DNA of 64,000 bases from a virus (Duplodnaviria > Caudoviricetes): IMG/VR virus record IMGVR_UViG_3300025372_000001; one strand, 5' to 3'. This document shows positions 29,817 to 32,010 of this stretch, in pieces (the stretch's first letter is position 1; each line of letters starts with the position of its first letter). Under the pieces are notes generated by a model, which did no database searches, was not told where the DNA came from, and saw only the letters and a list, made by a program, of their open reading frames with translations. The position numbers were made by a program, and so were the translations under genes.

Positions 29817-30092
29817 ATGGCTCAAATTACTTCTTCAACTCCTATCAGTGCTGCTCCTTTTAATCAATATTGGGTTCAGTCTTTAAACATCAATGGTTCT
29901 CCTGCCGGTAAAACAACTGCAACTGTTATGCTTAAACCCTTCAATGGTACATTAACTCTTGATTCTTTCAAGGTTCTAAACATTCCTGATGTATTTGGGC
30001 TTGCTGCCACTGATCCAACTTTTGCTGCCGTAGTTACTAGCTTAATCAACGAAATTGAACGTCAGGCAAAACTTAAAGGTGTAATTTCTTAA
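29817..30092 (+). CDS. Small late protein
   Basis: TAAATA 29799; 91 aa. Confidence 0.7.
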   Translation: MAQITSSTPISAAPFNQYWVQSLNINGSPAGKTTATVMLKPFNGTLTLDSFKVLNIPDVFGLAATDPTFAAVVTSLINEIERQAKLKGVIS

Positions 30093-30349
30093 ACAGCAAC
30101 AGGCATTGTTACTTTGCCCAAAGATTGATAGTTTTCTAAAATAGAATCAGAATATTGCCAATCAAAAATGTTAGTAAAATTCGGAGTTTGAATTCGTGGT
30201 AATTCAAACTCCGTTTTTCTTTTTAAGATTTCTTCAACTCCATCCAATTGATTTTCATAGATATGAACATTGGAAAGAAATCCGGTTAACATACCTTCTT
30301 CCAGGCATGATTCTTTTGCAAGAATATTTCATTTATTAAAGGGAATACC
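30089..30349 (-). pseudogene. thyA: 3' remnant of thymidylate synthase thyA
   Basis: In-frame GIPFNK*NILAKESCLEEGMLTGFLSNVHIYENQ...MPVAV: ThyA PFN and HIY motifs and C-terminus; N-terminal part with catalytic Cys missing. Confidence 0.8.
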
Positions 30350-30361
30350 ATAAATATAATC

Positions 30362-31126
30362 ATGGACAAGATAAAAGGAATATATGCAATAGTTAATATA
30401 GTAAATCATAAAAAATACATAGGTAGTTCGAAAAATATTAAGAAAAGATGGACTTCGCACAAAACTCGCCTCAATAGTAATATACATCATTCGGATTTCA
30501 TGCAAAGAGCATGGAACAAATACGGTAAAGACAATTTCAAGTTAACGATATTGGAAGTTTTAGATGTAGAAAGTAGTGCTAATGATTTGTTTGCTAAAGA
30601 ACAAGAATGGATTAATAAGTTAAATCCAGAATATAATGTAGGATCAGTTGGCGGGGGAGATAATTTGACTAATCATCCTCGTCGAGAGGAAATTATTGAA
30701 AAAATAACTAAATCTTCTCAAGAAAGAATGGATAATATGACCGAAGAGGATAAAGAGAAAATGCGTCAAAATTCTTTAGGTGATAAAAATCCTAATTGGA
30801 GAGGTGGAATATCAAAGATTAAAGGAGCATGTGTGGATTGCGGAACAGAAATTTGGAAAGATCGTATAAGATGTGTTCTATGTTCAAAAAAAGGAACAAA
30901 TAACCCTTTTTTCGGAAAACAGCATTCTGAAGAAACAAAAAAGAAAATGACAGATTCCCATAAAGGTAAACCTAATATTGCACAACGTAAAGCAATTATT
31001 ATAGATGGTGTATATTACGCATCATATAATGATGCAGCGTTAGCATTAGGAGTAACGGGTGCTATGATTACATATAGAGTGAAAAAGAATACACCTGGTT
31101 ATATAACCGTTCCCAATAAGTCATAA
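30362..31126 (+). mobile_element. Free-standing GIY-YIG homing endonuclease with NUMOD3-like motifs
   Basis: GIYAIVNIVNHKKYIGSS...RW..H; NPFFGKQHSEETKKKM; TAAATA at 30351. Confidence 0.9.
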
Positions 31127-31807
31127 TTTAAATGCTTCGATGCTATATTGAAACGGGTTTCCATTAATCTGCTTAACAAGATTAAGCATTTCTTCAGCAA
31201 TTTCCCTAATTTCTAATTGGGCATCTAATTTATTACGTAATCCTTGAAAATGTATAAATGATCGCCAGTTAAACATTACGTCAATTTGTATTTGACTGTT
31301 ATATGTTTTGAAAAAACGAGCTGATTCTTTTGCACGTTTTCGCCCTATTACAGGTTCTAAATCTTTTAATGCTGAATGATATAATCTATTACTTAATTCA
31401 GTGTATTCTTGAAGAAGAGTTGCCCAGTCCTTATTTTCAAAAGTATCATTGGTGGTATCATCTGAATTTATATGAAAATATGACGATGATTGAACATTTT
31501 TCCAATCATTAGGAATATAGAATTTATCTTCTTTCAATTCTTTATATCTAGCACTTTCGCCATTTATAGAAACTCCGATTCTATGTTTAAGAAAATGAAT
31601 ATGAGAAGCAATATCGCTATCTACAAGAAAATGTAAAGAACTCTTTTCAAAAGGAGTATGATGCCCTTTTTCCGCTAACATTTTTAAAATAGCAGGGATT
31701 CTTTCCTTTTTTTCATTTGTTAAATTACGTGTAGTACTAGTCCATGCCGAACAAGCATGACTTTCATCCCCGCCATAATACCCAATTAATTCTACTTTAT
31801 TATTCAT
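31121..31807 (-). CDS. thyX: Flavin-dependent thymidylate synthase
   Basis: HHTPFE, HFLKHRIGVSINGESARY, AQLEIREIA motifs. Confidence 0.9.
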   Translation of the reverse strand: MNNKVELIGYYGGDESHACSAWTSTTRNLTNEKKERIPAILKMLAEKGHHTPFEKSSLHFLVDSDIASHIHFLKHRIGVSINGESARYKELKEDKFYIPNDWKNVQSSSYFHINSDDTTNDTFENKDWATLLQEYTELSNRLYHSALKDLEPVIGRKRAKESARFFKTYNSQIQIDVMFNWRSFIHFQGLRNKLDAQLEIREIAEEMLNLVKQINGNPFQYSIEAFKL

Positions 31808-32010
31808 TTGTTATTTTTCTGTCTTACTTTTTCTCGATGAAGATTGAAACATTCTGCGCATCTCCAATTACGAATACCATTATAAGGCAAGGTATCCTTG
31901 TTTTCAACAACTACATGAAAAGGAGGTTTTTTATGACACGGTTCTTCATTTGGAAGAATACCTGATCCTACACAAATTTTCCAAACCTCTTTCATAATAT
32001 TATCCTTCAC
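31804..32010 (-). CDS. Small Cys-containing hypothetical protein
   Basis: 68 aa. Confidence 0.55.
   Translation of the reverse strand: MKDNIMKEVWKICVGSGILPNEEPCHKKPPFHVVVENKDTLPYNGIRNWRCAECFNLHREKVRQKNNK

Follow-up and report, generated by a model that had tools for sequence, protein, structure and literature searches.

How a phage comes to carry an intact thyX gene beside the mere last third of a thyA gene, with a homing endonuclease gene (HEG) lying between them, is the question raised by a locus in the IMG/VR virus record IMGVR_UViG_3300025372_000001. We analyzed a 64,000 nt stretch of this record (the window, whose positions are used as coordinates throughout), which derives from a freshwater jumbo phage with a genome of about 262 kb. 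The reading that we favor, with a probability of about 0.7 and on comparative sequence evidence, is that a group of freshwater jumbo phages has a polymorphic thymidylate synthase slot and that the locus is its derived allele, in which a composite of thyX and the HEG has replaced approximately the first two thirds of thyA by homing.

The locus consists of an intact thyX transcribed leftwards, the HEG in the opposed orientation, and the last third of thyA, again leftwards, with the thyX-HEG composite standing in place of about the first two thirds of thyA (Table 1). The two composite genes meet tail to tail with a 6 nt overlap in which the last sense codon of thyX overlaps the HEG stop codon, and the thyX ATG overlaps the stop codon of the gene for the small protein p68 by 4 nt, as the thyA ATG does in relatives. 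The thyA sequence starts with a D codon (30361-30359) that abuts the HEG start codon (30362-30364). Four codons further, G-I-P-F-N begins at 30349, and the equivalent of the T4 td intron insertion point (FLG^LPFN) is at 30347|30346, placing the break 15 nt before it. There follow one in-frame TGA and a gap of six residues relative to full-length ThyA (by tblastn), after which the frame continues from LAKES, and the 67-aa open reading frame (ORF) of the tail matches positions 202-266 of the 266 in the Pfam Thymidylat_synt profile (E 1.3e-11). A functional ThyA has a complete fold of ~265-300 aa with the catalytic Cys in a PCH motif, and the locus does not encode one, as only profile positions ~180-266 are present, and these with the TGA and the six-codon gap. 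A preliminary description of this stretch had recognized the intact thyX, the opposed GIY-YIG HEG and the thyA 3' remnant, and had placed the break at the td intron site motif, G-I-P-F-N at 30349 or possibly the D four codons earlier, and a stop with a deletion of about six codons before LAKES; Pfam, PDB and tblastn comparisons bear it out on each of these points. The junction and the in-frame stop are matched base for base by contigs of two further freshwater runs, which rules out an assembly artefact. The phage is recurrent in several freshwater metagenomes.

The location of the break at the td intron site motif would also suit a decayed td-type group I intron, or a split thyA whose N-terminal half lies elsewhere and reassembles with the tail in the manner of Aeh1 nrdA/mobE, and free-standing HEGs are known to create split genes (PMC2988022). 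However, there is no Rfam match to a group I intron between 29500 and 32500 at E values up to 5, the HEG runs antisense to thyA, and there is no exon 1. Moreover, a tblastn search with full-length phage ThyA finds no second thyA piece elsewhere in the 64 kb window, and no thyA N-terminal coding sequence is present within 6 kb in any relative. An intron remnant or a split gene thus seems a very improbable origin for the locus.

The HEG product is a free-standing enzyme of the I-TevI type, with a catalytic domain, a zinc-finger/NUMOD3 linker and a C-terminal DNA-binding domain. It has Pfam matches to GIY-YIG (PF01541, 2.2e-14), NUMOD3 (1.6e-11) and I-TevI_DNA-bd (5e-7) and a PHROG match to 'homing endonuclease' (1e-40), and it aligns both to the I-TevI catalytic domain (PDB 1MK0/1LN0), with counterparts of R27, H31 and E75, and to the I-TevI DNA-binding domain (1I3J, E 3.5e-11, residues 139-244), with the CxxC...CxxC included. 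The best phage match is a free-standing HEG directly after td in T5-like phages (39% identity, E 4e-54), and another of the best is a td-intron I-TevI-like HEG of the T4-like phage Melville (38%). Both of these nearest groups adjoin thyA, and the HEG lineage is therefore a thyA-associated one. The gene evolves with a ratio of nonsynonymous to synonymous substitution rates (dN/dS) of 0.22 between relatives.

No close relative of the window DNA is present among GenBank phages, and a search of IMG/VR with the flank proteins p270 and p498 found no relatives. The same order of thyX, HEG and thyA tail is nevertheless seen in an IMG/VR contig (L032) and in the metagenome contigs L086/87, L088, L089 and L092, which are syntenic with the window and have flanking genes at ~45-75% amino acid identity to it. 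Homologues of p68 precede thyX in these cassette-bearing relatives, and in L088 the thyA tail is followed by a 69% homologue of p91, the gene convergent with the tail in the window. The junction between the HEG ATG and the thyA relic (the thyA sequence that directly adjoins it) is identical in every HEG-bearing copy. A further relative, L090/91, derives from this arrangement by a clean deletion that took out both HEG and relic; 25 nt from the 3' end of the HEG persist, and the tail begins 23 nt after thyX.

The thyX gene of the window is full length (Thy1 profile positions 2-188 of 191) and under purifying selection (dN/dS 0.14 against L032), and of the conserved xHR...S...S.RY block, residues K74-H75-R76, S85, R87 and Y88 are invariant in 28 homologues; the first arginine of the canonical ThyX RHR motif is replaced by lysine in all 28 homologues of this group. 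A thyX gene occupies the slot in 7/7 cassette or derivative loci and is missing from it in both thyA-intact loci with readable context, and the thyX start position is the thyA start position in relatives. The window HEG and thyX are 64-74% identical to those of the other lineage, with a synonymous divergence (dS) of at least 1, yet both lineages share a homologous thyX/HEG overlap, as examined in the window, L088 and L089. The shared slot distribution, the homologous overlap and the common start argue for a single origin of a composite that behaves as one allele. Trees of ThyX itself are poorly resolved and do not recover the clade as one group, and the ThyX loci L001-L028 show no synteny with the window.

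The proposed replacement calls for thyA at this same locus in relatives, a comparison that the preliminary description had suggested, and further relatives retrieved by a p68 profile search provide it. In L130 the slot contains p68, then an ORF of 187 aa, then intact thyA (298 aa when counted from its first Met) and lastly the convergent structural genes, with no thyX and with flanking genes 58-74% identical in amino acid sequence to those of the window. The gene table of U__21Gea, whose p68 is the closest to that of the window (76%), lists p68, a 4 nt overlap, a ThyA of 298 aa, and then convergent genes of 90, 534 and 367 aa that mirror p91, p498 and p369 of the window, the 90-aa gene overlapping the end of thyA. 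The intact ThyA proteins of syntenic relatives are 298-316 aa long. Four more ThyA contigs are equal in length to p68 contigs (262,243; 511,690; 21,131; and 1,793 bp), from which residence of both genes on the same contig is inferred; the longest contig with the window's own p68 is 262,045 bp, near the 262,243 bp of one of these. More distant p68 homologues in L126 and L128 have too little synteny to inform. There is thus a presence/absence polymorphism at one locus, with the cassette in seven phages and thyA in L130 and U__21Gea, and on this synteny intact thyA is the alternative allele of the slot, and probably the ancestral one.

The window's tail relates it to intact alleles rather than to the other cassette phages. 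It matches the C-terminus of intact ThyA P0193 at 67/70 residues (95.7%; 72/77 from LAKES) and that of intact ThyA P0176 at 92.9% (70/77 from LAKES), but reaches only 61-75% identity with tails from the other cassette phages; the composite therefore adjoins different, locally derived tails. The junction sequence LAKESCLEEG looks as though it combines LAKESGYEEG, the intact form, with LAKEAGLEEG, the cassette form, placing a crossover ~50-60 nt from the HEG start. Similar discordance is seen among the relatives, with L032 and L089 having a dS of 0.00 in the HEG and 0.60 in the tail, and L086 and L092 having 0.03 and 0.87. L032 and L089 are 100% identical through the HEG and the junction, then 85-95% identical, and then fall within the tail to 50-57% over its last ~85 nt, beyond which the DNA is unrelated. 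Recombination breakpoints therefore lie inside the tail, and the identity tract centered on the HEG is the signature of co-conversion. Identical junctions in two diverged lineages together with a locally matched tail are as homing, or recombination in the tail, predicts.

These comparisons bear on the possibility that the thyA piece is foreign and hitch-hiked with the HEG, by co-conversion or by illegitimate insertion beside a resident thyX. HEG mobility does drag flanking DNA along (PMC2988022), the 41-60 nt nearest the HEG accompany the cassette in every lineage, and the failure of ThyX trees to unite the clade would be compatible with it. It is largely refuted, and we regard it as most improbable, because intact thyA lies in the slot of syntenic relatives and ends there at the same convergent gene, the window tail agrees at 94-96% with the thyA found in its own phage group, and the slot is without thyX wherever thyA is intact.

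A stronger competitor is a single ancient HEG insertion that was inherited vertically, with the tail domesticated as a mini-gene of 67-79 aa, whose product might for example bind ThyX or the host ThyA. The 71 tail codons from LEEG to the stop are open, without stops or indels, in seven phages; pairwise dN/dS is 0.10-0.33 in all 21 pairs, and substitutions are distributed 39/23/76 over the three codon positions (p = 1e-7). The frame is broken only upstream of LEEG, in the stretch from P-F-N to LAKE, which has the TGA in the window and a 1 nt loss in L032, L088 and L089 but is open in L086 and L092. Gene callers list the tails as ORFs, and L090/91 has retained its tail without HEG or relic. Set against this, the tail has no consistent start codon (ATG, TTG or CTG, in differing places), and the C-terminal third of ThyA lacks the catalytic cysteine and is part of the core fold of the full enzyme. 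The HEG and tail trees disagree, with breakpoints inside the tail, and because of these discordant histories low tail dN/dS need not reflect a function of the tail itself; it can be a legacy of functional thyA genes, passed on by repeated homing or recombination, so that on these comparisons tail function is no longer needed as an explanation. The intact thyA alleles and the 94-96% match of the window tail to them, which also sets it far from the other tails, weigh most against a selected mini-gene, which we think unlikely.

For the homing reading the expected target can be compared with that of I-TevI, which binds 20 bp centered on the insertion site, cuts 23/25 nt upstream and prefers a CNNNG motif (PMC2988022). 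The intact thyA of L130 matches the relic at 15/17 nt around the insertion-site equivalent and has CAAAG at -27..-23 from it, equal to the I-TevI cut geometry; L120 and L121 have CAAAG/CAACG at the same place. The cassette copies examined (the window and L086) have no CNNNG at -27..-23, because the 5' end of the HEG occupies everything upstream of -15, and their only such motif is CCATG at -19..-15, in which the ATG is the HEG's own start codon. The operator of I-TevI similarly resembles its homing site but has its only CNNNG at -15..-19, where it is not efficiently cut (PMC2988022). If the HEG has the same preferences, cassette carriers would be immune to it, and the thyA breakpoint at -15, which is 8-10 bp from the predicted cut, fits repair of an enzyme-made break after short resection.

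A plausible scenario, in which the cleavage specificity, the route of repair and the autoregulation are all modelled on I-TevI, starts with the C-terminal domain of the HEG product binding the DNA coding for G-(I/L)-P-F-N in the intact thyA of a co-infecting relative, and the catalytic domain cutting about 23-25 bp upstream at a CNNNG motif. Repair of the break would take the cassette-bearing genome as its template, with homology provided by the p68 side, the presumed left arm, and by the thyA tail, and thyX and the HEG would be copied into the recipient, destroying thyA but supplying ThyX, such that synthesis of thymidylate (dTMP) would be kept. The new allele would lack a cut motif at the right distance and so be self-immune, and the binding half-site would survive directly before the HEG start codon, most likely as the HEG operator or 5' control region. 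The preliminary description had proposed non-orthologous replacement driven by a thyA-targeting endonuclease, and the synteny, the mosaic tails and the CAAAG of L130 favor that part of it; the tail, which it took to be kept as a homology arm, may instead be simply left over.

The putative control region is unusually conserved. The 41 nt block that runs through the relic from the HEG start codon (30324-30364) has just three variable positions across six phages and one difference between the window and L032, at a divergence where HEG synonymous sites are near saturation (dS ~1), and in sliding-window analysis the relic is the conservation peak of the 1.7 kb locus (0.96-0.98). It is probably a HEG binding site, operator or 5' control region, by analogy with I-TevI. 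On the rightwards strand, a terminator-like hairpin (30182-30213, without its T-run) within the tail codons K-T-E-F-E-L-P-R-I-Q-T-P is, judging from its sequence, the likely end of the convergent structural operon and a probable barrier to read-through into the HEG. Such a hairpin would isolate the HEG from upstream transcription, and the HEG control signals should therefore lie in the relic stretch. RNA folding of the HEG 5' region shows nothing special (z-score 0.27), and a sigma-70 promoter scan gives no more hits than in shuffled sequence.

Several observations weigh against replacement by homing. All seven tails are open with dN/dS of 0.10-0.33, which a tail function would explain equally well, and L090 retained its tail after losing the HEG. 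The window HEG and thyX are separated from those of the other lineage by a dS of at least 1, and no donor was found; the window tail could come from ordinary recombination with a thyA-bearing relative and not from homing of the cassette. Homology is poor beside the break (D-Y-I-Y versus D-V-P-L or D-L-A-L) and becomes useful only from LAKE. The window p68 is only 68% identical to the p68 paired with P0193, so the P0193 phage is not a close relative of the window throughout. Finally, the HEG is only ~38% identical to I-TevI-like enzymes, and its target and cut distance are extrapolated from them.

Table 1. Features of the thymidylate synthase slot and its flanks in the window.
Feature	Coordinates	Strand	Description
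p91, convergent gene	29817..30092	+	stop overlaps thyA-tail stop; conserved right flank of slot
thyA tail	30089..30322	-	last 77 codons, LAKES...PVAV + stop; ATG-initiated 67-aa ORF at 30089-30292
thyA remnant	30092-30361	-	counterpart of residues 180-277 in a full-length phage ThyA (tblastn, E 2e-9)
Terminator-like hairpin	30182..30223	+	13 bp stem + T-run, from pattern scan; antisense within thyA tail
thyA relic, active-site/td homing-site region	30324..30361	-	codons D-Y-I-Y-G-I-P-F-N-K; TGA at 30329-30331
I-TevI-type GIY-YIG HEG, free-standing	30362..31126	+	254 aa; Pfam, PDB and PHROG matches
thyX	31121..31807	-	228 aa; Pfam Thy1 E 1.6e-30
p68, small Cys-rich protein	31804..32010	-	conserved left flank of slot

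Among the various other features of these genomes, we note that a Shine-Dalgarno-like motif precedes only 8/57 of the larger ORFs in the window and that the regions upstream of start codons are A/T-rich. Shine-Dalgarno sites are thus nearly absent in this phage. The pattern resembles translation initiation of the Bacteroidota type.

Further gene replacements and interruptions are seen around thyX. In L086 (3627-5214) a full-length but chimeric thyX with a foreign or divergent 3' end is followed at once, on the other strand, by an HNH/EndoVII-type ORF (197 aa, PHROG 1035), and a 51-aa 3' fragment of the native thyX is left behind (50/51 identical to L090); this is a recent parallel, a HEG-associated partial gene replacement leaving a 3' remnant. 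In L032 (6424-6969) a second HNH-type ORF (181 aa) lies between p68 and thyX, and when L032 is aligned with L089, ~50 nt from the 5' end of thyX seem to be duplicated on the far side of this ORF. HEGs often adjoin thyX itself, as in L025 (5983-7366), in which a LEM-3-like GIY-YIG ORF (256 aa) overlaps the thyX 3' end in the same orientation. In L024 a 3' fragment of thyX is present a second time, 1.6 kb downstream of the gene. A phage that shares a few other genes with the window carries a thyX N-terminal remnant (L029, 6001-6171; the first 34 residues, 71% identical to the window's) followed by unrelated genes.

Environmental phage thyA is likewise interrupted at several sites. ThyA P0007 and P0008 (locus L120) have in-frame insertions of ~200-240 aa after the GPIYG motif, and thyA is also interrupted at the loci L101 and L115/L116, with gaps of 600-770 nt elsewhere in the gene in L101 and L115. 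An IMG/VR phage unrelated to the window (L102, 4280-6198; also L103) has a 65-aa thyA C-terminal ORF that directly follows IS200/IS605-type TnpB (419 aa) and TnpA (141 aa) genes with no thyA N-terminus nearby, and a 60-aa member of this remnant family occurs on 13 contigs. Other short ThyA C-terminal ORFs recovered in a representative search are mostly singletons on tiny contigs and were not used as evidence. The normally conserved L-P-F-N codons, to which the HEG product presumably binds, differ widely across 122 related phage ThyAs, with PLN, GWN, CLN, GYN, PAN, PQN and other variants (P0176, P0193, P0224 and P0294 included), and the intact alleles closest to the window tail are among the P-F-N variants. 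This codon variation may reflect escape of the target site.

The window HEG shares with I-TevI its three-part architecture, the aligned R27/H31/E75, and the same gene and region (..D.(F)LG^LPFN.., with CNNNG at -27..-23 in the relatives' intact alleles). It differs in having ~36-38% identity to I-TevI-like enzymes, no intron, an inverted orientation and an abutment to thyA at -15, and in that thyA is destroyed and not spliced, with linked thyX supplying the function. The HEGs after td in T5-like phages (SelmaRatti bas34_0063; L097 in IMG/VR), its best match, are also free-standing and tied to thyA, whereas there thyA is intact, the HEG follows it in the same orientation and overlaps its stop, and there is no thyX. 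The relic is like the I-TevI operator (Edgell et al. 2004, via PMC2988022) in being a homing-site-like sequence upstream of the HEG with its only CNNNG at -19..-15; unlike the T4 operator, the putative operator here is what actually remains of the target gene, and it has the opposite orientation to the HEG. Free-standing HEGs in critical coding regions of nucleotide metabolism are known from mobE in Aeh1 nrdA and mobA in T4 gene 39/60 (PMC2988022), but there both halves of the gene survive and reassemble, whereas at this locus nothing is left of the N-terminal two thirds, whose place has been taken by the gene of an analogous enzyme. The locus is therefore best described as a variant of free-standing HEG behavior, in which destruction of the target is compensated by a linked non-orthologous analogue.

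Non-orthologous displacement between ThyA and ThyX was reportedly described by Myllykallio and colleagues in 2002. As in that general pattern, the analogous enzymes here alternate between related genomes, but they do so at one locus, among close relatives, and coupled to a HEG. A full-text literature search for thyX, thyA, homing endonuclease and phage together found no related description.

The usual view is that HEGs aimed at essential genes survive by hiding in self-splicing introns or inteins, or by lying between genes. The locus suggests a further solution, to destroy the target and bring an analogous enzyme. We put forward tentatively, at rather less than even odds, that overwriting the target while carrying thyX is a fourth HEG strategy besides introns, inteins and intergenic parking for attacking an essential function while sparing the carrier, with the surviving half-site doubling as operator and immunity determinant. 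The leftover tail may look selected because recombination renews it from functional alleles, which should urge care when pseudogenes and mini-ORFs are called in mosaic phage genomes. The intact and replaced alleles, the predicted target, the 41 bp relic and the PFN-codon variants, which may resist cleavage, provide natural test material. The locus thus offers a concrete, testable mechanism for thyA-to-thyX displacement, which is otherwise described mainly from gene distributions. If this reading is true, homing of a HEG would be a direct mechanism for the patchy distribution of thyA and thyX, and the HEG could be a driver of escape variants in which the P-F-N codons of phage thyA are changed.

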